Source: an uncultured Actinomycetota bacterium
Lineage (GTDB): Bacteria; Actinomycetota; Acidimicrobiia; Spongiisociales; UBA5794
Direction of reading: 5' to 3'
Length of the DNA: 64,000 nucleotides
NCBI GenBank assembly: GCA_963808015.1
Contig: CAWEEG010000030.1
Location: 25-64,024, forward strand
Shown piece by piece: positions 11,361-63,924 of the stretch (within the stretch, counting starts at the first letter, position 1; each line of letters opens with the position of its first letter). The notes beneath the pieces are model-generated. The model was not told where the DNA came from and searched no databases. It saw only the letters and a list, made by a program, of their open reading frames with translations. Both the position numbers and the translations under genes were made by a program.

Positions 11361-11909
11361 ATGCCGGTTGTTCTCGCCATTCTGCTCTCCGTCGTGCTCG
11401 GCGCCCCGTTCGGGGAGGCAGAGGCTCGTGCGCTCGAGGTCGACACCGGGATGACGATCGAGGTGTCGGTCGAACTGGACGGCGGACGATCAGCGGTGCT
11501 GGCCCGGGTGGTTGCGTTCGCCGGAGAACTGCCACCGGTCGCACTCGTCGACCAGGGCGATGGCCGATGGGTCGGCATCCTCCGGCTCTCGGGACGCGAA
11601 GATGTTCAGGTCGCGTTCGAAGCCATCGACGCCGATGGCTCGAGCGACATCTCCGAGCTTTCGACGCTGACGGAACTCGGTGTTGATCCGGCCGTGGTTT
11701 CCCCAACTCGGCCAACGATCCCGCCGGCGGAGGAGCCCGGTCCGAACTGGTGGCTCATCGGCGGGGCTGTGGCCGGGATCGCAGCACTCGTCCTATTGGT
11801 GGCGTGGGCGGTCGCGGGTACGACAGACAAGGGCTTGGGCGAACCGGACGAGAAGAACGGCGTCGGTGAGCCCGAACCCGACTCCGCACCCGGCGACGCT
11901 GGGGCTTAG
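11361..11909 (+). CDS. Secreted, membrane-anchored hypothetical protein (signal peptide, C-terminal TM helix, acidic tail)
   Basis: N-terminal hydrophobic leader; C-terminal [20 protein letters not shown] helix followed by a D/E/P-rich tail. Confidence 0.5.
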
Positions 11910-33869: not shown

Positions 33870-34598
33870 ATGAGATCTGCAGTTGTTCTCCTCGTGCTGG
33901 TCGTGTTGGGTGGCTGTTCGAGTAGCACGGATACGACCATCGCGGCCTCCTCCACCTCCGTTCCGCCTGAGACAACAACGGAAGCGCCGCAACAACGACG
34001 ACCACGGTGCAACAACGACGACCACGGCTGCAACGACGACGACCACGGCTGCAACGACAACGACCACGGCTGCGACAACCACGACCACCGCGGCTCCGAC
34101 AACCACCACAACAGCGGCGACTACCACAACGTCGGGCGGACCGTACGAGGTTGGCGTTCCCGACGTTCGCTCCGTTGGCTCCTCTGCCCGGAAGCGGCGG
34201 TGCAGCAGGGTCCGGTTGTACGCCAGGGGCGGGACCGTTGCCGGATGGCGCTTGGTTCGGCTACGTGGTGGCCAAGTCGGCGACGGCCATCGACTTCGAT
34301 CTGGCCTGCTTCTTCTACGGCGCCATCGCCTACACCGAGGGAGCCGCGGACGGAGAAGAGGTCAACAACGACTACTACGTGCGCAATGTCAATCCGACGC
34401 TCCGGACGATCGCCCGTCCCAGCGACGGCCACCGTGTATGAGGTCGATGCGGGATCCGTCGGGTTCCTGACGGTCCCGTTCTCCGGATGGCCGGTTGACC
34501 CGAGCGCGTCCATTCCCTGTCCTTCCACCTCGTGCAATGTCTGGGTCTTCGTCAACGGTGGCGAAGTCACCGAGATCCTCGAGCAATTCACGCCGTGA
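33870..34598 (+). CDS. Lipoprotein with a Thr/Ala-rich repeat linker, 2 frameshifts
   Basis: Signal plus lipobox VVLGGCSSS. TTTTTAA x6 linker in frame 33883... C-terminal domain spread over frames 34007.. and 33870..34598. Confidence 0.55.
   Translation: MRSAVVLLVLVVLGGCSSSTDTTIAASSTSVPPETTTEAPQQRRPRCNNDDHGCNDDDHGCNDNDHGCDNHDHRGSDNHHNSGDYHNVGRTVRGWRSRRSLRWLLCPEAAVQQGPVVRQGRDRCRMALGSATWWPSRRRPSTSIWPASSTAPSPTPREPRTEKRSTTTTTCAMSIRRSGRSPVPATATVYEVDAGSVGFLTVPFSGWPVDPSASIPCPSTSCNVWVFVNGGEVTEILEQFTP
33988..34135 (+). repeat. About 6-7 tandem copies of a 21-nt unit (gcaacaacgacgaccacggct) encoding the TTTTTAA linker
   Basis: Direct reading of the sequence. Confidence 0.8.
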
Positions 34599-34697: not shown

Positions 34698-35844
34698 GAT
34701 GTCACGACGCGCCGTATTGATGGGCACCGTTCTTGGTGTGCTGATGGACATGGCGCTTCCGGTGTCAGCTCTCTCGCCGGCATACGAACAGCTGCCCGAC
34801 GGTGATACCCGGCCGATCATCATGTCGGCTGAACTTCTCGATCCCCAGCCGAAGAACGCGCTGCTTGAAGCGGATCTCCAGATCGAGGCCTTCGACAACG
34901 ATGGAATCCTGAAGTACGAGTACCGATGGAACCGTTCTGATCCCGACGGGGTCTTCACCACCTCAGCCGCCGAACCGACCGTTTCCTACGCCTCGGTGGT
35001 CCCCGAGACCTATGCCAGGCTCGAGGTACGGGCGGTTGACCTCAACAGTTGGCGATCCGAGTGGCGCACCGTCTGGACGGGCGTCACGCCGCCCGCTCCG
35101 ATGATTGTTCTCGCCGGCGACTCGATTGCATCCGGGTACACGCGACGGTGGTTCACCGGCGATGCCACCTGCCGCGATGCCGACTACTCGTTCGGAAGCA
35201 CGGTGCGTGATTCGGTCGCCGCGGCACTTCCTGCTGCGTGGGCACCCAACTATGTCAACCTTGCTTTCCCCGGCGCAGGTGTGAATTCAGTCATCAACGG
35301 CGGTTCCGACTCCTGCTCGGATACCCATCCCAGCCAGATCGATGACATCGAGCGCTACACGGATCCCACGACGTGGAATGTCGTGATCGTGACGGCCGGG
35401 ATCAACTCGACGAACTGGGTCGACGTGGTGAAGGAACTGACCAAGGACACCGCGTTCTCATGGACGAAAGCGGGGGACAAGCTTGCGTGCCAGGAAGCGA
35501 TCACAGAACGGTGGAATCTGAGCGATCGGCGCGACCAAATCACAGCCGGGGCATCCGAGATCGCCGAAGCGATCAGAACCCGGGCGAATGCGTCGGTGTA
35601 CTGGGCGAGCTACTTCGCGATTGATGGAACAACGATCGCCCCCGGGTGGTCGCCGATCGGCCCCGAGTGTGCCGAGGAGATGGAGTCTGCGCTGGGCGAG
35701 TTGCACGGCGCCATCCAGGCCGGCCTCGACCAAGACGTGACCTGGGTGGATATCGATGGTCTGCCGATTGACACCCAGATGTGGGCCGGGCTGGCCACAC
35801 CCCAACCCCGACGGCCACCGCATCATCGGACTCGCTGTCGCTGA
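34698..35844 (+). CDS. Secreted SGNH/GDSL-family hydrolase
   Basis: Signal peptide MSRRAVLMGTVLGVLMDMALPVSA; GDSIASGY block I motif; about 380 aa. Confidence 0.65.
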
Positions 35845-35866
35845 AGCGATCACGAGCTAGGGGAGA

Positions 35867-36085
35867 GATTTGAGACTCGAGATCCGAGATCCGAGATCGA
35901 GACTTGAGATCCGAGACTTGCGGCGGGCCTCATCTTGGTGGTGCTGGCTCCCAGGCCGCCCTTCCCGCCCTCGCTGCGCTCGGGCACCCTCCCCCACCTT
36001 CGGCGGTGGAGGCGAAGACATGGGTTCGGTTCAGGTCTCGAGTCTCGTGTCTCGTGTCTCGTGTCTTGTGACTCAGTGTCTGGGC
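35867..36085. repeat. GAGAC-unit repeat element, locus A: direct GAGA(C/T)YYGAGAY units (35867-35920), 110-bp GC-rich core, inverted GTCTCG units (36033-36085)
   Basis: Read directly. Sits between the convergent SGNH hydrolase and HNH pseudogene. Confidence 0.85.
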
Positions 36086-45903: not shown

Positions 45904-47636
45904 GGGGGTTCATCCGCCTCGTGGAGTCACTCCGGGCCTACCCGGGGCGGTTTGTGGCCTCGATCGCCGCCGGTGCCGCATCGGTCGCGTCGTCGATCGG
46001 CCTGCTCACCGTCTCCGCTTATCTCATCTCCTCAGCGGCGCTGCGTCCGCCACTTCTCGATCTCACCGTCGCCATCGTCGGCGTACGGTTCTTCGGCATC
46101 GCTCGCGCCGTTTTCCGGTATCTGGAGCGCCTCGTCTCTCACGACCTGAGTCTCGACCTCCTCGCCGACCTGAGGTCGCGGATCGCCCGGGCAATCCATC
46201 GGCTGGGTCCTGCCGGAGTTGCATCGTTCCGAGCGGGAGACCTCGTCGGGCGCACCCTCGACGACGTCGACGAGATCCAGCACGTCTTCGTTCGGGTGAT
46301 CGCTCCTCCCCTGATCGCCATCGTCGTTGCTGTGCTCACGCTTCTCCTTGCTGTGCTCTGGCTGCCGGCGTCGGTTCCCACGATCCTCATCCCGCTCGTC
46401 GTGGCAGGTGTCCTGGTCCCCTGGGTCACCCAGCGGGCCGGCAACACTTCCGGTCGTGCCGTCGCGGGCGAACGAGGGCAGCTGATCGGTCGAACCGTCG
46501 AGACCATCGAGGGGGCACAGGCAATCGTCGCTCTCGGGGAGGAGGACCGGATGCTTGCCGCTGCCGACGAGGCGGCTGCGAGCATGGCGGCAGCCGAGCG
46601 CAGAACGGCGTGGCTTCACGGCTTCGGTGACGCGATGCATTCTGGCCCTGGTCGGGATTGCGCTCGTTGGAACGTTGTGGGTCGCGGCAGCCGCAGTGGA
46701 GGTCGGATCGCTCGACGGGGTGATGGTTGCCGTGCTCGCGATGCTCGCCATCACACCGTTCGAGGCGGTTGCGCCCCTCCCATCGGCCTTTGAGAGGCTC
46801 GGCCGTTCGCTCGGAGCCGCCGACCGGTTGTTCGAGGTCATCGAGGCGGAGTCGCCGACATCTCCGCCTGAACACCCTGTACCGATCCCCCCAAACGCAA
46901 CTCTGCGATGTTCAAGGGGCGGTCGTGACCGCAACGAGCGGACAGCGAATCCTCGGGCCGATCGATCTCACGGTCTGGCCGGGCGCACGGATCGGGATCG
47001 TCGGCGAGACCGGCGCCGGCAAGACCACGCTGGCGCATGTGATGTGCCGTTTCCGAGATCCCAACGAGGGAGTCGTCTCATTGGGCGGAGTTGATCTGCG
47101 CGACGCTAGATCCCGACGGACTCCGAGCCGTTGTTGGCTACGAGGACGATCGAGCGTTCCTCTTCCGAGGTTCGATCGCCGGCAACGTCCGAATCGGTGA
47201 TCGCGACGCCGTCGAATGACGACGTGAGTGCCGCTCTCGACCGGCGTCGGATTCGGCGAGTGGATCGATGAGCTTCCCGACGGTCTCGACTCCGACGTCG
47301 GCGAGGGTGGCGAGTTCGTATCAGGGGGTCAGCGTCGAAGGCTCGCCCTTGCTCGGGCCCTCCTGGCCGACTTCCCGATCCTGGTGCTCGATGAGCCCAT
47401 ATCCGGTCTCGATCCCGTGACCGCAGATGCCGTGATGGATGATCTGCTCGATGCCGGCGCGTGATCGCAGCCTCGTGCTGATCACCCACCGCCCGGTTGG
47501 CCTCGACCGCATGGACGAGATCATCGTGATGGGAGACGGCGAGATCCAGGCCAGGGGTACACACGAAGAGTTGCTGAAGACCAACGAGCGGTATGCCGGG
47601 ATGTGGGGGCTAGTAGCGAGTAGACCCGAGACTTGA
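45900..47636 (+). CDS. cydC: ABC transporter (permease-ATPase) CydC, broken by about 6 +1 frameshifts
   Basis: TM domain 45900-46680; Walker [10 protein letters not shown] (frame 46727); signature [15 protein letters not shown] and Walker [10 protein letters not shown] (frame 47228); H-loop region (frame 47439..47636). The stop TGA lies within the first unit of the downstream repeat. Confidence 0.75.
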
Positions 47637-47803
47637 GACCCGAGACTTGAGACCCGAGACTTGAGACCCGAGACTTGAGACCCGAGACTTGAGACCCGAG
47701 ACTTGAGACCCGAGACTTGAGACCCGAGACTTGAGACCCGAGTCTTGAGACCCGAGTCTTGAGACCCGAGTCTGTCTCGTGTCTAGCGTCTCGAGTCTCA
47801 TGT
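47624..47803. repeat. GAGAC-unit repeat element, locus B: about 10.5 tandem copies of cccgagacttgagac followed by an inverted segment tctcgtgtctagcgtctcgagtctc
   Basis: Read directly. Confidence 0.9.
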
Positions 47804-47855
47804 CGTGATAACGAGCCTCGCCCGCAGATGTTTCGGCACCCCTACCCTCTCTCTC

Positions 47856-48889
47856 ATGTCCCGTGTTGACTGGCCGCTTGCCGTTTCTGTTGCCGCGAGT
47901 GTGTCCGGGCGGTACCCGCTCGAGGACACCTACCACCAGACGCGCCTCGAACGCGATTTGCCCGACATGGTTGTGCGCGCTTCGGAGCTGGTGTCGGAGG
48001 AGACAGGACTCGTTGCACCGGGCCTCCCGGACGTGGCCGTGGTCGGTCGGACCGGGGTGGGTCGAGAACAACGTTGCATCTTTCGCAACACTGCTGGCGC
48101 CGGCCGAACAGCGGCTCGGATCTGCATCCGGGATTGGCGCAGCCGTCGCAGGGCGGATCATGGGAGCCGAGATGGGTGCCGTCCTTGGATTCCTCGCTCG
48201 TCGGGTTCTCGGCCAGTATGAGCTCGTGCTCCCAACGTCAGATGGCGAGTTCGGGGACACCGTTCTGTTCGTTGGGCCGAACCTTCTCAAGATGGAGCGA
48301 AACCACGCCTTCCGGCCGGACGAGTTCCGTTTCTGGGTTGCGCTGCACGAGTGCACCACCGGCTCCAATTCACCGGGGTTCCCTGGCTTCGCGGCTACTT
48401 CCTCGGCCTCGTTGAGGAATTGGTCGCCACCGCCAAGCCGGAAAGCGGGCAGATCCAACGGGTTGCTGCCCAACTCAGGGAAGCTGCCGCTGCCGGCGAG
48501 CCACTGATCGACGAATCCGGGATCTTCGGGGTATTCGCCACCCCGCAGCAGCGTGAAGTGATCGATCGCGTCCAAGCGCTGATGGCGCTCCTCGAGGGGC
48601 ACGGCCATGTTGTCATGGACCGAATCGGCAGCGCGAGAACTGGTTACCCAGGCCCGCATGTCGGCGGTGCTGAAAGCAAGACGTTCCGACAAGCGCACGG
48701 CGGCGTTGATGCGTCTGATCGGCCTCGAAATGAAGCTCCGCCAATACGAAATGGGCGAGAGGTTCATTAGCGGCGTCGAGGAACGGGCTTCATGGTCAAA
48801 CGCTCGACCTTGCGTGGGAGAGCCCTGAGGCGTTGCCGACCCTCGAAGAGATCGAAGCGCCCGACCTATGGCTGCAGCGGATCGCCTGA
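47856..48889 (+). CDS. Zinc-dependent metalloprotease (DUF2342 family), 3 or more frameshifts
   Basis: HExxH reconstructed across a frame junction (WVALHECT|HRLQF). C-terminus ...LDLAWESPEALPTLEEIEAPDLWLQRIA* lies in a third frame. Confidence 0.6.
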
Positions 48890-50185
48890 CACCCGACCAA
48901 CTCGTGTCAGAGGCGCACAAGCTCTTGCCGGAGAGCCCTCTCGTCGTTGCACTCGGGGGAGGCGCCGATTCAGCGGTCGCCGCGTGGGTCGCTGCGCAGC
49001 GCACTGCGAACCCGCGGCATCTTCGTCTCGTCATGGCCTCGACGGCTCGGCAGCGCTCGAAGAAGCCGCCGGCTGCACTCGGAACACACCTCGGCATCGG
49101 AGTCACGTTCGTCGACGCACCCGTGGATGCCGGACCGTCCCTCGAGTCGCGTGCCCGCGACGCTCGATGGAACGCCATCACATCTGCTGTTGCCGGAGAC
49201 GAAACGTGGTGACCGGACACACGCAGGACGACCAGGCCGAAACGGTGATGATGAACCTCATGCGCGGTTCGGGGAGCGCGGGAGTCGCCGGGATGCTGCG
49301 CAGTCGCCCAGGTGTGGTCCGCCCGCTGCTCGGGTTCTCCCGAGCAGCCGTCCGATCACTCGCAGAAGAACTCGGCCTGCCGTTCGTGGATGATCCGGCG
49401 AACGAAGACGACAGCTACCTCAGGAATCGCATCCGTCGGAACCTCCTCCCGGACCTCGAACGGACTATGCCACCGGAGTCCGCGCGCACACTCGCCCGCG
49501 CCGGCGCCCTGGCGGCAGCCGACGACAACCTGATTGAAGTCCTCACCGACGACATCCCTGTTGTTGGCGGATGCGCGAACCGTCTCCATCCCGATTGCTC
49601 CGCATTAGTCACGGCGCCGCAACCGATCGCGGCACGCAGCGTCCGCAGGGCACTGCGCAGACTTCTCGATCCGTACGCCGGATCCGAAGCCGACATCGAG
49701 GCGGTCCTCGATGTTGCCGCCGGCCGAACAGAGTCGGAAATGATCTCCGGCTCGCTCACCGTCGCGCGGGAGGGTCCGTTTGTTACGGTCGACTCAGGGC
49801 GACCCACCGAGGTGAACTCGATGCAAATCGCCATCTCGGTTCCAGCAGAGGTTCGGTTTGGGGAGCACATCGTGACGTTCGAGGACGTCGACGTGTCCCA
49901 GATCAGTCCGTATCTCGACCCTGCTCTTGGACCCGAAGGTATTTGGCGCCACGACGCTGGTCAGGGGGGTCGAACGAGGGAGATCGGATCGATATCGACG
50001 CGGGATCGAAGACTGTCAGAACCGTGCTCTCCGAGCGAGGAATCCCCGTGCGCAGCCGCTCCACTTGGCCGGTGGTGGTCGAGGGTGGCAGAATCGCTGC
50101 CATTGTCGGCATTCGCGCCGCACCGTGGACGCGGCCGACAACAAGACAAGCGGTCGCTATCCGATGGAAGCAGGAATCGCCGTGA
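48868..50185 (+). CDS. tilS: tRNA(Ile)-lysidine synthetase, 2 frameshifts
   Basis: PP-loop VVALGGGADSAV at the N-terminus; middle in frame 48792.. (QDDQAETVMMNLMRGSG); C-terminal domain in frame 49571..50185. Confidence 0.75.
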
Positions 50186-50703
50186 AGATTGGAAGAACCC
50201 TCGTATCCGCAGAGGAGATCGATGCGAAGCTCGCCGAGATGGGTGCAGCCATCACCCGCGACTACGAGGGGAAGAATCTCCTCATGGTCGCGATCCTCAA
50301 GGGTGCCTTCGTTGTGATGGCCGATCTTGCCCGCCACGTGGCGCTCCCGGTCGAGTTCGACTTCATGGCCGTCTCGTCCTACGGAGCGTCAACGAAGTCG
50401 TCCGGTGTCGTACGGATACTCAAGGACCTCGACGAAGAGATCGAGGGTCGCCATGTGTTGATCGTCGAGGACATCATCGATACCGGTCTGACCCTCCAGT
50501 ACCTGATCAAGAACCTGGAGGTGAGGAATCCGGCGTCGTTGAAGCTGGCGGCGCTGCTCATCAAGGACGGTATCGAGCGCCCGCCGCTCGAGGTGGCCTA
50601 CGAGGGATTCCACATCGGTCCCGAGTTCGTGATCGGCTACGGCCTCGACTTCGACGGCAAGTACCGAAACCTGCCGCACGTTGCGGTCGTCGACGAGGTG
50701 TAG
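50164..50703 (+). CDS. hpt: Hypoxanthine-guanine phosphoribosyltransferase
   Basis: PRPP-binding motif VLIVEDIIDTGLTL; 179 aa, intact. Confidence 0.9.
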   Translation: MEAGIAVKIGRTLVSAEEIDAKLAEMGAAITRDYEGKNLLMVAILKGAFVVMADLARHVALPVEFDFMAVSSYGASTKSSGVVRILKDLDEEIEGRHVLIVEDIIDTGLTLQYLIKNLEVRNPASLKLAALLIKDGIERPPLEVAYEGFHIGPEFVIGYGLDFDGKYRNLPHVAVVDEV

Positions 50704-50737: not shown

Positions 50738-50880
50738 TTGAGACTTGAGACCCGAGACTTGAGACCCGAGACTCGAGACTTTCGTGTCCGAAGTCTCGGT
50801 ACTCTCGGGCCCAGCGCCGAGCACCATGCGAGACGACCCCACTCGAGTCTGGAGTCTCGTGTCTGTTGTCTGGTCTCGCT
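50738..50880. repeat. GAGAC-unit repeat element, locus C: direct units, central hairpin cgagactttcg/cgaagtctcg, inverted units
   Basis: Read directly; between hpt and ftsH. Confidence 0.85.
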
Positions 50881-50909
50881 GGGTGGCATAGAAGGCTCGT
50901 CGGCTTACC

Positions 50910-56510: not shown

Positions 56511-57280
56511 TGCTGCTCACCATCGACGTTGGAAACACCCAAGTCGCCATCGGCCTGTTCCGAGATGACGAATTGGTCGGTCATTGGAGATTCTCGACCA
56601 AGGAGCAAACGTCCGATGAGATGCGGTGGGAGCTGCTCGGTGTTCTCGCTCTTGACGGATTCACGCCGAACGACATCGGTGGTGTTGCGGTTTCGAGCGT
56701 CGTGCCGTCGATCACCGCCACCATGCGCAATGTTGCACCGGCGCTGTCGCACGGCCCGGTCCTCGTCATCGGTCCCGGCATCAAGACCGGCATGTCAATC
56801 CAGATCGACAACCCGAGGGAGGTCGGCGCCGACCGGGTCGTCAATGCGGTCGCAGCGCGGGAGCAATATGGCAGTCCGGCCATCGTGGTCGACTTCGGGA
56901 CGTCGACGAACTTCGATGTTGTCGGGCCCGACGGCGCCTACATCGGCGGAGTGATCGCTCCGGGTCTCGAGATCTCAACGCGGGCGCTGATATCCGGGAC
57001 TGCTGCGCTCCGCAGAGTTGAGTTCGTCCCGCCGCGGTCGCCGATCGGAAAGGGAACGGTCGAAGCGATCCAGAGTGGGGCCCTGTATGGGCATGCCGGC
57101 CTCGTAGATGGGATCCTCGGCCGTCTCGTCGACGAAGTCGGAGAGACAACCACCGTTGTCGCCACCGGCGGACTCGCACCTACCATCGTTCCGTACTGCC
57201 GCAACGTCGAGATCGTGGACGAGTACCTGACCCTCGACGGTCTGCGGATGATCTTCGACCGGAATCAGGAAGACCAATGA
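56510..57280 (+). CDS. coaX: Type III pantothenate kinase
   Basis: [18 protein letters not shown]-terminus; acetate/sugar-kinase fold motifs (VDFGTSTNFD, ATGG); intact. Confidence 0.85.
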   Translation: MLLTIDVGNTQVAIGLFRDDELVGHWRFSTKEQTSDEMRWELLGVLALDGFTPNDIGGVAVSSVVPSITATMRNVAPALSHGPVLVIGPGIKTGMSIQIDNPREVGADRVVNAVAAREQYGSPAIVVDFGTSTNFDVVGPDGAYIGGVIAPGLEISTRALISGTAALRRVEFVPPRSPIGKGTVEAIQSGALYGHAGLVDGILGRLVDEVGETTTVVATGGLAPTIVPYCRNVEIVDEYLTLDGLRMIFDRNQEDQ

Positions 57281-58770
57281 CGGACGACACCACGAGCGCC
57301 CAGAGCCCACAGGACGATCCGCTCGTTGCGGCGCGCATTGAGAAACACCGGAAGGTGGTTGCTGCAGGGGGGTATCCGACACGGTTCGACCGCACCGACC
57401 TCGCATCGGAACTCCACGACCGCTACGTCGACCTCGAACCCGGCGCCGAGACCGGAGTCGAGGCTACGGTCGCCGGGCGGCTCATGAACGTGCGCGACAT
57501 GGGGAAACTCGCATTCGGCGTGCTCCAGGACGTATCCGGGAGAATCCAGCTGTTCGTGAGCGTGTCGGTGCTCGGAGCGGACGGTTTTGAGGACTTCCTC
57601 GACCTCGACGCAGGCGACTGGATCGGCGCCACCGGGGAGATCATTGCGACGAAGAAGGGTGAACTCAGCGTCCGCGTATCGTCGGTGACACTCCTGTCGA
57701 AGGCGCTCCGTCCATTGCCGGAGAAGTGGCATGGGCTCAAGGACGTCGAGGCTCGATCGCGGCAGCGGTACGTCGACCTGATGGTCAACGCCGATTCGAG
57801 GAAGACGGCGCTCGTTCGAGCGAAGGTGGTCTCCGAACTCCGCCGGCAATTCGAGGACCGCGGGTTCATCGAGGTCGAGACGCCCGTTCTACTCACGCAG
57901 GCGACGGGCGCGACCGCGCGACCGTTCGAGACCCATCACAACGCCCTCGACCTCGATCTCTCGCTCCGGATCGCCACAGAGTTGTTCTTGAAGAGGCTCG
58001 TCGTCGGCGGCATCGAGCGGGTGTTTGAGATTGGCCGGATCTTCCGGAACGAGGGTGTTGACGCCACGCACAATCCAGAGTTCACGATGCTCGAGGCGTA
58101 TCAAGCGTTCGCCGACTACGAGGATGTCATGGCTCTCATCGAGGCCGTGTTCTCCGGCGTCGCCGTTGCCGCCGCGGGTACGTCGACACTGACCTACCAG
58201 GGGCGGCACCTCGACCTTTCGCCTCCATTCCGAAGGGCACGCCTCGTGGACCTCGTGTCCGAAGCGGTGGGGGAGGAGGTTTCCCTCGCAACGTCACCGG
58301 TTCGTCTTGCTGAGATTGCCGCCACGCGTGGTGTGGACATCGAGGAGTCGTGGGGCCCCGGGCGGGTTGTCTTCGAGTTGTACGAGGAACTCGCTGAAGA
58401 CGGAATCTGGGAACCAACCTTCGTGACCGACTATCCGAAGGAAGTCTCACCGCTCGCTCGATCGAGTCGCGACAATCCCGAGATCACGGAGCGGTTCGAA
58501 TTGGTGATCGCAGGCGCCGAGTACGCCAACGCGTTCTCAGAGCTGAACGATCCGTTCGATCAGCGGGAACGTTTCGAGGTGCAAGCCGCGGCGCGAGCAG
58601 CAGGTGATGATGAAGCGCACCCGGTTGACGAGGACTACCTCAGGGCGCTCGAGTATGGCCTGCCACCGACCGGAGGCCTCGGCATCGGCGTCGACCGCCT
58701 CGTGATGCTCCTCACCGACCGCAAACACATCCGGGAAGTGATCCTCTTCCCAACAATGAGGCCGGAGTGA
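57277..58770 (+). CDS. lysS: Lysyl-tRNA synthetase (class II)
   Basis: Class II motifs 1-3 (e.g. FRNEG, GLGIGVDRLVMLLT); 497 aa, intact. Confidence 0.9.
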   Translation: MTDDTTSAQSPQDDPLVAARIEKHRKVVAAGGYPTRFDRTDLASELHDRYVDLEPGAETGVEATVAGRLMNVRDMGKLAFGVLQDVSGRIQLFVSVSVLGADGFEDFLDLDAGDWIGATGEIIATKKGELSVRVSSVTLLSKALRPLPEKWHGLKDVEARSRQRYVDLMVNADSRKTALVRAKVVSELRRQFEDRGFIEVETPVLLTQATGATARPFETHHNALDLDLSLRIATELFLKRLVVGGIERVFEIGRIFRNEGVDATHNPEFTMLEAYQAFADYEDVMALIEAVFSGVAVAAAGTSTLTYQGRHLDLSPPFRRARLVDLVSEAVGEEVSLATSPVRLAEIAATRGVDIEESWGPGRVVFELYEELAEDGIWEPTFVTDYPKEVSPLARSSRDNPEITERFELVIAGAEYANAFSELNDPFDQRERFEVQAAARAAGDDEAHPVDEDYLRALEYGLPPTGGLGIGVDRLVMLLTDRKHIREVILFPTMRPE

Positions 58771-58843
58771 CCCGAGACCTGAGACACGAGACATGAGGCA
58801 CAGGTACGTGTCTGGCGTCTCGGGTCTAGCGTCTCGGGTCTGC
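58771..58843. repeat. GAGAC-unit repeat element, locus D: direct units cccgagacctgagacacgagac then inverted gtgtctggcgtctcgggtctagcgtctcgggtc; between convergent lysS and polyprenyl synthase
   Basis: Read directly; the lysS stop TGA abuts the first unit. Confidence 0.85.
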
Positions 58844-58847
58844 CTAC

Positions 58848-59787
58848 TCATCTTCTTGCTGCTTCTACTCGGTCGAGGATGTAGGAATCGAGGTTGCGGA
58901 GGACCGGTCGCAGCGAGCTGTCGGGGATTCGATCGGAGGCGCGTTCCGCCAGGGCCATGTGGGTCATGGCCTCGTCGATGACTTGGTCGACGAAACCTCC
59001 GGACGCGGTGAGTTCGATAACCCGATCGATAACCGCACGGTCGGTGGGGGCACCGTTGGAGAGGAGATCTCGAATCTCAGAACCATGCGGACCGTCCGCG
59101 GCGTACAGCACCGGCAGGGTGTAGACACCCTCTCCGATGTCCGAGCCCGCGGGCTTCCCGAGGAACTCGTCGTCGGCGATCAGGTCGAGAACGTCGTCGG
59201 TCATCTGGAACACGAGACCCATCTCCCAGGCCCATTCGCTGATCGCATCAACCGTCTCGGTGTCGGCGCCGGCGGTCAGCGCGCCGAGCCTGGCCGATGT
59301 TCGAATCAGGCTGGCGGTCTTGCCGCCGATCACCCGGAAGTAGCCGTCGGCGCCATGGTCGAGACCGGTGGCAAAACGCAGCTCGGCGATCTGCCCTTCG
59401 CAGAGACGAGCGTAGGTTTGGGCGATGAGGGCGACGGCTTCTTCGCCGAGCGGGGCCGCAACCTCGGATGCCCGTGCGAGCAAGAAGTCTCCTGCCAGGA
59501 TCGCGATCGTGTTCGACCAGTTCTCGTTCACCGAAACCTCGCCGCGGCGCGACTCAGCTTCATCGATGACATCGTCGTGATAGAGAGATCCGACGTGAAC
59601 CAACTCGACGGAGACGCCGGCTTCAACGGGTCCGCCGCCGTTGCTGGGGCCGAACTCCGCGGCGACCTGCGCGAGCAAGGGCCGATAACGTTTCCCGCCG
59701 GCCCGAAGCAGGTGTTGGGCGATGTCCGTGAGGAATTCGTCGTCCGATTCTGTGACTTCGAGCAGGCGCCGCTCTACCGCTTCCATG
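58848..59787 (-). CDS. Polyprenyl diphosphate synthase (trans-isoprenyl transferase)
   Basis: FARM LYHDDVIDEAESRRG and SARM MTDDVLD aspartate-rich motifs; 313 aa. Confidence 0.85.
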
Positions 59788-62562: not shown

Positions 62563-62590
62563 GCTCGAGTCTCAAGTCTCATGCTCTCGG
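62563..62590. repeat. GAGAC-unit repeat, locus E (two inverted-orientation units gagtctcaagtctc) downstream of clpC
   Basis: Read directly. Confidence 0.6.
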
Positions 62591-62702: not shown

Positions 62703-63924
62703 ATGACCGGATTGAAGAAGCGCGGGGGCTTGTTTGTACTCCTCCTCGCATTCGCACTGATCGTTGCTGCGTGCAGTAGCGACAGCGACGACACGACAAC
62801 AACAGCGGCCGGTGGCGATGAGACCACAACGACCGCTGCTGAAGAGACCACGACAACCGCCGGTGGCGAAGAGACCACGACGACCGCCGGTGAAGAGACC
62901 ACGACCACGGAAGCGATGGCGTTCGAGGGCGAACCGATCAAGACCTGCTTGGTGACCGACCTTGCCGGCGTCGACGATCGAAGCTTCAACGCCAGTGCGT
63001 GGGCCGGTGTTCAGGCTGCGATGGATGCCGGATTCGCAACGGACGACTCGTTCTTCCTCGAGTCCACCGATGCTTCCGACTGGCAGCCGAACATCGATCA
63101 GATGGTCAGCCAGGGTTGTCAGCACATCGTGACCGTCGGCTTCGCTCTCGGCGAGGTCACGGCCATCAATGCGCAGGCGAACCCGGACATCATCTTCTCG
63201 ATGGTGGATAACGTCCTGACCGACGAGAACTTCGCGCCGCTCGCACTGCCGAACGTGCGTGAGCTCGTGTACCAGACCGACCAAGCTGCGTTCGCTGCGG
63301 GTTATCTCTCCGCTGGTGTCAGCGAGACGGGTGTGCTCTGCACATACGGCGGGGCGAACTTCCCGACCGTCGCCATCTTCATGGATGGCTTCACGCGGGG
63401 TGCGGCGCACTACAACGAGGTCAAGGGAACCGACGTGCAGGTGCTCGGCTGGGACGTCGAGGCCCAGGATGGGCTCTTCACCGGCAGCTTCACCGACATG
63501 GACCTTGCACGGAGCACGGCTGAGAGCCTGTTCCAGGAGAACTGCGACATCATCATCCCCGTCGGCGGCGCAATCAACCTGCCGGCAGGTGACGCGATCA
63601 ACGACTCGGGCATCAACGGCCGCTCTTGTTGGCGTCGACGCCGACGCGTACTTCGCGATGGATGAGCAGTACCAGTCGTTGTGGCTCACCACGGTCGAGA
63701 AGGCCATCGGGCCGCTCGTCACACTTTCGGTGCAGCAGCAGGCTGAGGGTTCATGGACCGCCGGCGCGTTCGTCGGCAACCTGGAAAACGACGGCGTCGG
63801 GCTCTCCGAGTACCACGACTGGGATGCCATGGTGTCCGACGAGCTGAAGGCTGAAGTCGAGCAACTGCTCCAGGACATCAAGGATGGCGCGATCAAGGCC
63901 GACTACGTCCCTGTTGGGTACTAG
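62703..63924 (+). CDS. BMP-family (PnrA-like) ABC-transporter substrate-binding lipoprotein with a Thr-rich repeat linker, 1 frameshift
   Basis: Lipobox LIVAACSSDS; (E)ETTTTA(G)G linker x4; BMP-family blocks; C-terminus in frame 63259..63924. Confidence 0.7.

Follow-up and report, generated by a model that had tools for sequence, protein, structure and literature searches.

Stop-proximal tandem-heptamer hairpins form an extragenic palindromic repeat family in an uncultured Acidimicrobiia lineage

What are the GAGAC-rich repeats that recur at gene ends in a 64,000-nucleotide stretch of contig CAWEEG010000030.1 (assembly GCA_963808015.1; the whole stretch is hereafter the window), and do they act there or simply persist there? 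The five loci concerned are copies of one extragenic palindromic repeat family of tandem heptamers in an uncultured Acidimicrobiia lineage, in agreement with an original prediction, made from the window, of a dispersed hairpin-forming family at gene 3′ ends. Individual copies abut or overlap the stop codons that close transcription units and prefer gaps between convergent genes; they share one architecture, occur in one clade and are hypervariable. The assignment to the host lineage followed from the window LysS (57277–58770), the best named relatives of which were found in metagenome-assembled genomes (MAGs) labelled Acidimicrobiia, and LysS identities of 97–99% were found only on short metagenome contigs; a search for the exact protein found no entry.

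Architecture of the heptamer hairpins

GAGACYY heptamers were present at five loci, designated A–E, all confined to the last 29 kb of the window. The motif GAGACYYGAGAC matched 24 times in the window against 0.14 expected, a number reached in none of 100 shuffles, and the matches lay where the repeats had been predicted. We delimited the arrays with Tandem Repeats Finder (TRF); a detector demanding strict repetition at lag 7 overlooked those in which the spacers alternate. Period-7/14 arrays were found at 35865–35918 and 36035–36081 (locus A), 47622–47799 (locus B), 50738–50781 and 50845–50873 (locus C), and 58769–58801 and 58810–58841 (locus D), with a tandem 7-nt unit at all four of these full loci. 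The repeat unit thus measures 7 nt (14 nt when counted as a dimer) and not the 15 nt first assigned to the large array: at locus B, TRF returned the 14-nt unit GAGACTT+GAGACCC in 10.6 copies with 99% matches.

The loci differ in completeness and in their distance from the upstream stop, which ranges from −3 to 52 nt. Locus B is the largest. Its 5′ arm (47610–47770, + strand) begins with cta GTAGCGA GTAGACC, continues with about eight GAGACTT GAGACCC dimers and passes into GAGTCTT and GAGACCC units, and its 3′ arm (47771–47803, + strand) carries the inverted units GTCTCGT GTCTAGC GTCTCGA GTCTCAT GTC, so that the tract 47624–47803 runs from dimers through GAGTCTT units to their inverted counterparts. 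The fold of locus B reached −90.9 kcal/mol (z −7.4). Locus D is a complete hairpin at 58771–58847, with arms at 58771–58801 and 58810–58845 and no defined strand; as predicted, it lies exactly between two convergent genes, filling the entire gap from the lysS stop (58768–58770, +) to the polyprenyl synthase stop (58848–58850, −). It folded at −53.7 kcal/mol (z −5.6), and the whole lysS/synthase gap gave z −3.8.

Locus A consists of a 5′ arm of about seven degenerate GAGAYNN heptamers (35865–35918, + strand; TRF period 7/14/20), a 116-nt loop (35919–36034, + strand) and a 3′ arm of about six inverted GTCTCGT units (36035–36081, + strand; TRF period 7, 6.6 copies), which pairs with the 5′ arm in the minimum-free-energy fold (z −2.9). 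It starts about 20 nt past the stop (35842–35844) of the gene at 34717–35844, a weakly GDSL/SGNH-like gene (Pfam Lipase_GDSL, 21.5 bits, below the cut-off). At locus C, six TTGAGAC/CCGAGAC heptamers (50738–50781, + strand) begin 35 nt past the hpt stop (50701–50703; Pfam Pribosyltran) and are followed, upstream of ftsH, by a central module and a degenerate inverted arm, GAGTCTG GAGTCTC GTGTCTG TTGTCTG GTCTC (50782–50877, + strand; z −2.1). Locus E retains two GTCTC units (GAGTCTCAAGTCTCAT; 62563–62580, + strand) 52 nt past the clpC stop; its 5′ arm is gone, and the region folded no better than shuffles (z −0.56). By comparison with the full hairpin at the orthologous site in contigs L121–L125, locus E is a remnant.

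Two general claims of the original prediction were thus narrowed. Inverted units forming a hairpin, proposed for every locus, were found at A–D (z −2.1 to −7.4), locus E being unpaired. A position immediately after the stop codon, likewise proposed for all five, was found at B, which lies over the cydC stop, and at D, which abuts the lysS stop (58768–58770), and the elements at A, C and E begin about 20, 35 and 52 nt downstream.

In the stems of loci A–D, each heptamer contributes five to six pairs and one mismatch, and this pattern follows from a design that recurs throughout the family. A copy runs from outer GTAG-type units (GTAGCAA, GTAGACC) into a purine-rich arm of alternating GAGACTT and GAGACCC, then a loop, and then a GT-GTCTC arm that often ends in CTAC. 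At no fewer than 15 independent loci, one arm alternates GAGAC-TT with GAGAC-CC and the other reads GAGAC-AC on its own strand, an asymmetry that leaves in each unit a G-C or G-U pair and a Y-U mismatch. The RNA or single-stranded DNA of a copy is accordingly modelled as a long hairpin with about six pairs and one pyrimidine–pyrimidine mismatch per 7 nt. Slippage acting on each locus separately would not yield one and the same asymmetry, so that the copies are probably related by copying. Each arm is a direct array, with heptamer counts from 3 to more than 20; the elements measure about 45 to about 190 nt, and an inverted arm was present in 22 of the 35 clade copies examined below, the remaining copies being scored as single arrays.

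The perfect cores are flanked by degenerate units, among them GTAGCAA, GTAGACC and GTAGTCC. Of 68 element ends, 23 had the tetranucleotide GTAG no more than 16 nt away, compared with a background of 2.7% (13-fold enrichment). It was equally present at ends facing gene starts (7/21), which makes it a component of the element rather than just a stop codon supplied by a neighbouring gene.

The loops are either nearly absent (GAGAC-A-GTCTC) or hold recurring modules. One such module, the locus A loop, is a copy of a second dispersed repeat, 75–116 nt long, that often lies beside, or in the loop of, heptamer hairpins. Its core is ggctcccaggccgccc.tcccgccctcgctg.gctcgggcaccctcccc, followed by a short CCTCCCC/GGGGAGG hairpin. 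The window copy (35919–36034) reads cccaggccgccc.tcccgccctcgctg.gctcgggcaccctcccc...ggtggagg, and blastn located further copies in L177 (4038–4112), L142 (7417–7490), L127 (11559–11607) and L139 (13224–13254). We also observed that, in other taxa from soil and lake metagenomes (L178, L180, L184, L192, L193 and L197; 67–70% GC), the GTCTC arm precedes the GAGAC arm, so that the purine-arm-first order is not universal.

None of the window elements is followed 3′ by a T-run, as read directly from the sequence and as originally stated. A canonical Rho-independent terminator was rejected on this ground, a hairpin being present with no U-tract directly 3′ of it. Canonical sites combining a hairpin and a T-run occurred in the window at chance level (12 vs 10.8 expected, and 12 vs 11.5), and the terminator scan placed one low-ranked 6-pair stem with a T-rich tail inside an element, at locus C (50758–50777). 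This lack of enrichment leaves the U-tract-less hairpins as the sole candidates for intrinsic 3′ structures seen in the window. An Rfam search, at gathering thresholds and at E values up to 1, returned only tRNA and a chance match to a miRNA model (E 0.38).

Position relative to genes and turnover among relatives

To place the elements relative to genes in general, we scanned metagenomes for GAGACTTGAGACCCGAGAC, which gave 66 loci; many of them belong to one sample series with 62–66% GC and have the same design. GC3-based gene finding did not discriminate at 64% GC, and genes were instead called with a codon log-likelihood model trained on the database gene calls for L121 and L131. The position test used 35 non-redundant copies from related metagenome contigs, with element-free gaps of at least 30 nt on the same contigs as the comparison set. 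Fourteen elements lay in convergent gaps, 13 in tandem gaps and 3 in divergent gaps, compared with 12, 70 and 27 element-free gaps, respectively; the other five copies lay at contig edges. The contexts differed from those of element-free gaps (chi-square p 4e-5), and convergent gaps were favoured over divergent ones (Fisher odds ratio 10.5, p 5e-4). Twelve of the 13 elements in tandem gaps were nearer to the upstream stop, and the median distance in this context was 15 nt vs 60 nt. These counts uphold the 3′-end bias that the original prediction had proposed to check across copies, the gene calls behind them being crude. The TT/CC arm was proximal to the upstream stop in nine cases and distal in three (p 0.15), some of these loci being orthologous.

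Pfam matches and synteny gave the gene order cydD, cydC, zincin_2, tilS, hpt, ftsH, fol/pan/coaX, lysS, polyprenyl synthase (minus strand), clpC and a Bmp lipoprotein gene. The cydC TGA (47634–47636) lies inside the first TTGAGAC unit of locus B, so that the element encodes the last eight cydC codons as well as the stop. This element-encoded C-terminal tail of CydC and its stop vary among strains (window, 47610–47636; L123, about 35–106; L131, about 440–455). As had been anticipated, the arrays also create spurious open reading frames (ORFs): the ORF at 47610–49220 on the minus strand reads through the locus B array. A 649-aa ORF ending at the TGA at 50739–50741 was likewise rejected as spurious, hpt ending at 50703.

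Compared with L173, an independent contig 99.0% identical to the window in which cydC is one intact ORF, the window cydC contains six single-base insertions (46637, 46909, 47106, 47209, 47245 and 47458). These look like consensus errors of long-read type, and pseudogene decay of cydC was rejected on this basis. The zincin_2, tilS, ftsH and fol genes (47.8–55 kb) are fragmented in the same way.

We then compared orthologous sites on syntenic contigs fetched through LysS homologues. These comprised L126 (98% LysS identity), L121–L125 (92%), L131–L135 (91%), L127 (87%), L128 and L129 (81%) and L130 (68%). Every relative with at least 87% LysS identity carried a heptamer hairpin at the cydC and hpt-ftsH sites, and most did so at the 3′ ends of lysS and clpC. 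The content of these sites varied widely. At the cydC 3′ end, GAGACYY units (3 to about 20) were found in the window, L121, L122 and L127, AAGAACC/GGTTCTT hairpins in L123, and GTAGCAR/CTGCTAC hairpins in L131 and L133. The lysS 3′ end carried GAGACNN units in the window, CAAGAAC units in L121–L125 and, in L126, (GTAGCAA GACACAA)x3 paired with (TTGCTAC)x3 between flanks 95.8% identical to those of the window. At clpC, a full hairpin was present in L121–L125 and only the remnant in the window. Variants of unit type at orthologous sites still folded (z −6.3, −6.2 and −2.4).

Copy number differed between related strains: the hpt-ftsH array contained 3, 5, 6, 7 or 9 units, with the 130 nt downstream staying conserved. 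The spacer from array C to the ftsH start (50782–50909), possibly a leader or promoter of ftsH, was kept in all clade relatives and contains a nested palindrome, GTCTCGgtactCTCGGg...CCGAGcaccatgCGAGAC; Rfam gave no match for this spacer.

Turnover was evident even among contigs L121–L125: they are 99.6–99.8% identical over 13–17 kb, but the type of unit or the number of copies varies among them. Between contigs 99.6% identical, one site held entirely different heptamers in both arms, and the L121/L123 alignment starts exactly at the right edge of the cydC element. The alignments thus define the element as a replaceable block between conserved flanks, which changes in 7- or 14-nt steps and by replacement of whole alleles. 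The proposal of recent slippage or active turnover at locus B was borne out insofar as copy number is unstable between strains; the exchange of both arms goes beyond slippage. Many metagenome and MAG contigs (L005, L020, L033, L146, L166, L173 and L194) end inside heptamer arrays, which indicates that the repeats break assemblies and that copy numbers may be collapsed.

The suggestion that the family is specific to one genome did not hold. The window family recurs across an Acidimicrobiia clade of genus level, and many phyla contain arrays of GAGAC heptamers. A scan with one genome per species found four-unit GAGACNN arrays at no fewer than 120 loci across many phyla, including, among the matches listed, Verrucomicrobiota, Acidobacteriota, Cyanobacteria, Bacteroidota, Chloroflexota, Gemmatimonadota, Planctomycetota and others. 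An inverted GTCTC partner lay within 200 nt in 18 of the 120 matches listed, compared with 0 of 240 control windows. The 835 kb surrounding the matches listed contained 300 period-7 arrays vs 33 of period 6 and 64 of period 8; a further 182 of the period-7 arrays had unrelated unit sequences. The special property is therefore the 7-nt register and not GAGAC, and a reading of GAGAC as a special motif was rejected, since these genomes also carry period-7 arrays built from many other sequences.

Further tandem repeats of other kinds were observed in the window. A 21/42-nt repeat (33989–34109), adjoining a 24-nt repeat that runs to 34127, and a 24/51-nt repeat (62808–62905) have units divisible by 3 in length and may be coding, and a 60-nt repeat in two copies (2793–2911) lies in an apparently non-coding 1-kb gap.

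Functional reading and competing explanations

The reading we prefer, at about even odds, is that the copies would serve as functional, stop-abutting RNA 3′-end hairpins, that is, as terminators or decay barriers that change by 7/14-nt slippage. By this mechanism, arrays would lengthen and shorten by replication slippage in a 7-nt register, as proposed for heptameric simple repeats generally, and copies at different loci would have spread by transposition or gene conversion, a step inferred from the shared arm asymmetry. The transcript hairpin would be a 3′-end element without a U-tract, usable from both strands, that might stop or pause RNA polymerase, block 3′-to-5′ decay as REP (repetitive extragenic palindromic) elements do, or both. 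Stop codons recur in the units in all three frames, as TGA in TTGAGAC and TAG in GTAG. Hairpin terminators without a U-tract ('I-shaped') and the mycobacterial TRIT motif are GC-rich hairpins at 3′ ends in high-GC actinobacteria, often between convergent genes; they are single conserved stems, unlike the heptamer arrays, and whether hairpins without U-tracts terminate at all is disputed.

Several observations weigh against such a function. Sense and antisense folding energies differed by −7.7 to +24.8 kcal/mol with no trend; the strands fold about equally, and nothing points to RNA-level selection on one strand. No strong hairpin lies at the other convergent junctions of the window, and L131 has no element after lysS. 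At all four orthologous sites, the relatives with 81% and 68% LysS identity were devoid of heptamer hairpins. In one of these relatives, L128 (81%), the lysS and synthase stops are separated by the 6 nt GTCTCG only (11492–11503), a single heptamer-like core where the clade has a 75-nt hairpin and one that could be either a seed or a deletion scar. Since the outgroups are without hairpins and the content of the sites changes within the clade, the family is clade-restricted, dispensable and fast-changing. The position bias itself could reflect where such DNA is tolerated and not function, and an explanation by tolerance only does account for it. The data also carry limits: gene calls came from a home-made codon model, by which alone the three divergent cases are defined, the window has consensus indel errors, and copy numbers derive from metagenome assemblies, which can collapse tandem repeats.

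Tolerance is the core of a second explanation, which we consider possible and hold only tentatively. According to it, the elements are functionless by-products: slippage expands heptamers, template switching makes the inverted arms, and the products persist only where they are harmless, so that the position bias reflects purifying selection. The harmless places would be those downstream of stops, as opposed to promoters or 5′ leaders. The absence of elements from outgroups and from many 3′ ends, the extreme instability of copy number and unit type, and folding without strand asymmetry all fit this explanation, as does the dominance of period-7 arrays of unrelated sequence in heptamer-rich genomes of many phyla (the 300 vs 33 and 64 counted around the matches listed). 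The authors who described the Xanthomonas heptamers likewise found no function (PMC4692102). Local slippage, however, leaves unexplained both the TT/CC vs AC arm design at 15 or more unrelated loci and the GTAG edges. The hairpins at cydC and hpt-ftsH were moreover kept in every clade relative examined despite full sequence turnover, as were those at lysS and clpC in most, and elements were about 10-fold enriched in convergent over divergent gaps relative to element-free gaps.

Alternatively, the copies may be non-autonomous elements of REP/REPIN type, in which a Y1/HUH transposase resembling RAYT copies a GTAG-tagged hairpin beside GTAG or TAG, the association with stops is a target preference, and the loop modules are later insertions. 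We judge this unlikely. The 13-fold enrichment of GTAG at element edges, including edges facing gene starts, speaks for it, together with the asymmetric arm design common to the loci, the mosaic or nested architecture with recurring loop modules, and the exchange of whole elements between near-identical strains; GTAG REPs are also known to supply TAG stops (PMC3733652). Against it, the arms are direct heptamer arrays and not short palindromic REP units, element length is not fixed, only a third of element ends have a GTAG within 16 nt, and occupied/empty polymorphism was not seen among close strains. A tblastn search with E. coli RayT over the window and 1.5 Mb of fetched loci returned nothing below E = 1, a weak test, as no complete clade genome was included. 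Two other classes of mobile element were rejected. A miniature inverted-repeat transposable element was excluded because alignments of filled vs empty sites showed no target-site duplication and length was highly variable, and an integron attC site because no RYYYAAC...GTTRRRY cores were present and the flanks are housekeeping genes (cydC, hpt, lysS and clpC) in conserved synteny. Readings as CRISPR or as coding repeats were also rejected.

A broader proposal, distinctly improbable in our estimation, is that heptamer palindromes constitute a distinct and widespread class of mobile or self-propagating DNA linking simple repeats with REPs, in which an enzyme places GTAG-tagged copies beside stops, the 7-nt register follows from a common ruler and the mismatch is designed. 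The ruler behind a register found in at least 10 phyla with unrelated units would then be the replisome or a single-strand transposase, and a mismatch every 7 nt would, for example, evade the cleavage of perfect palindromes or of double-stranded RNA.

We consider it very improbable that the elements act at the DNA level, either as arrayed sites bound by a nucleoid-associated or another DNA-binding protein or as non-B DNA (cruciform or quadruplex) with an effect on replication or supercoiling. Hairpin potential was equal on both strands, as expected of a DNA palindrome, and the heptamers of Xanthomonas and Nostoc make quadruplexes in vitro (PMC4692102). None of the units GAGACTT, GAGACCC, GTAGCAA and CAAGAAC, however, contains a GGG run, so that a quadruplex cannot form. 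The nucleoid-associated protein sites of the original prediction gained no support: a period of 7 bp is out of step with the helical repeat of DNA and sets successive sites on different faces of the helix, and the wholesale replacement of units at one site (GAGACYY, AAGAACC, GTAGCAA) would be intolerable to a sequence-specific binder. An assembly or consensus artefact has a negligible probability, since, despite the single-base insertion errors of the window and the proneness of tandem repeats to assembly error, the same elements with the same flanks were found in independent assemblies (L173, L168, L148, L121–L127 and L131–L135), which refutes it for their existence and leaves only the exact copy number at locus B uncertain.

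Wider significance and relation to known repeats

Irrespective of function, the elements have practical consequences. They rewrite the last codons and stops of real genes, create long spurious ORFs and break short-read assemblies, and they provide highly polymorphic strain-typing markers for an uncultured lineage. The family also documents allele replacement between near-identical strains.

Heptanucleotides are the most abundant long simple repeats in most genomes, and polymerase slippage over a 7-nt contact has been proposed as their origin (Mrazek et al., 2007, as summarised in PMC4679880). A literature search on Acidimicrobiia repeats, and on heptanucleotide repeats as terminators, found nothing specific. 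The closest precedent is a class of intergenic heptamers known from Xanthomonas (GGGAATC) and Nostoc/Anabaena (GGGGAYT), which is counted among the 'long simple sequence repeats' that Mrazek et al. (2007) described (as cited in PMC4679880 and PMC4692102). The Xanthomonas repeats are about 90% intergenic, lie mostly 0–50 nt from the upstream stop or overlap it, and form 70–75 inverted pairs per genome capable of stem-loops; they are fewer between divergent ORFs and variable among close relatives (Rehm et al., 2015; PMC4692102). The window family and these heptamers thus have in common a 7-nt tandem unit, an intergenic position near or over the upstream stop, rarity between divergent genes, inverted array pairs, and orthologous sites that are kept while length and sequence vary. 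The differences concern host, sequence and design. The host phylum here is Actinomycetota (Acidimicrobiia), the two arms differ in period, with a 14-nt super-period in one and 7 nt in the other, the edges are enriched in GTAG, and the units are GAGACYY and also GTAGCAA and CAAGAAC, without G-tracts. The quadruplex explanation offered for Xanthomonas therefore cannot apply to the window family.

REP, BIME and REPIN elements and the GTAG palindromes (Nunvar, 2010, PMC2817692; PMC3733652) resemble the window family in being extragenic palindromes at gene 3′ ends with an outer GTAG, termini that supply TAG stops, mosaic clustering and variation from strain to strain, and termination and mRNA stabilisation have been proposed as roles for them, as here; at the ends of the copies described here, GTAG is enriched without being universal. 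GTAG-tagged REPs often supply the TAG stop of a flanking ORF (Di Nocera et al., 2013; PMC3733652). Unlike REPs, which are fixed palindromes of 20–40 nt, the arms described here are variable arrays of a non-palindromic 7-nt unit. The STRR repeats of Calothrix PCC 7601 (as cited in PMC4692102) and the TAACTGA repeats of Beggiatoaceae, cyanobacteria and Bacteroidetes (PMC4679880) are also intergenic tandem heptamers with a sporadic phylogeny. In contrast to the palindromic, stop-codon-associated window family, the TAACTGA repeats are found immediately before start codons, with units in direct orientation in 169 of 170 sets (PMC4679880).

Inverted heptamers that hug stop codons are thus not tied to quadruplex-forming G-tracts, and the family argues against the quadruplex as a general explanation. 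The features common to such repeats are the 7-nt register, palindromic pairing and position, which narrow the possible explanations for the dominance of heptamers among bacterial simple repeats. The window family joins a known, poorly understood class of stop-proximal heptameric intergenic repeats, to which it adds REP-like traits.

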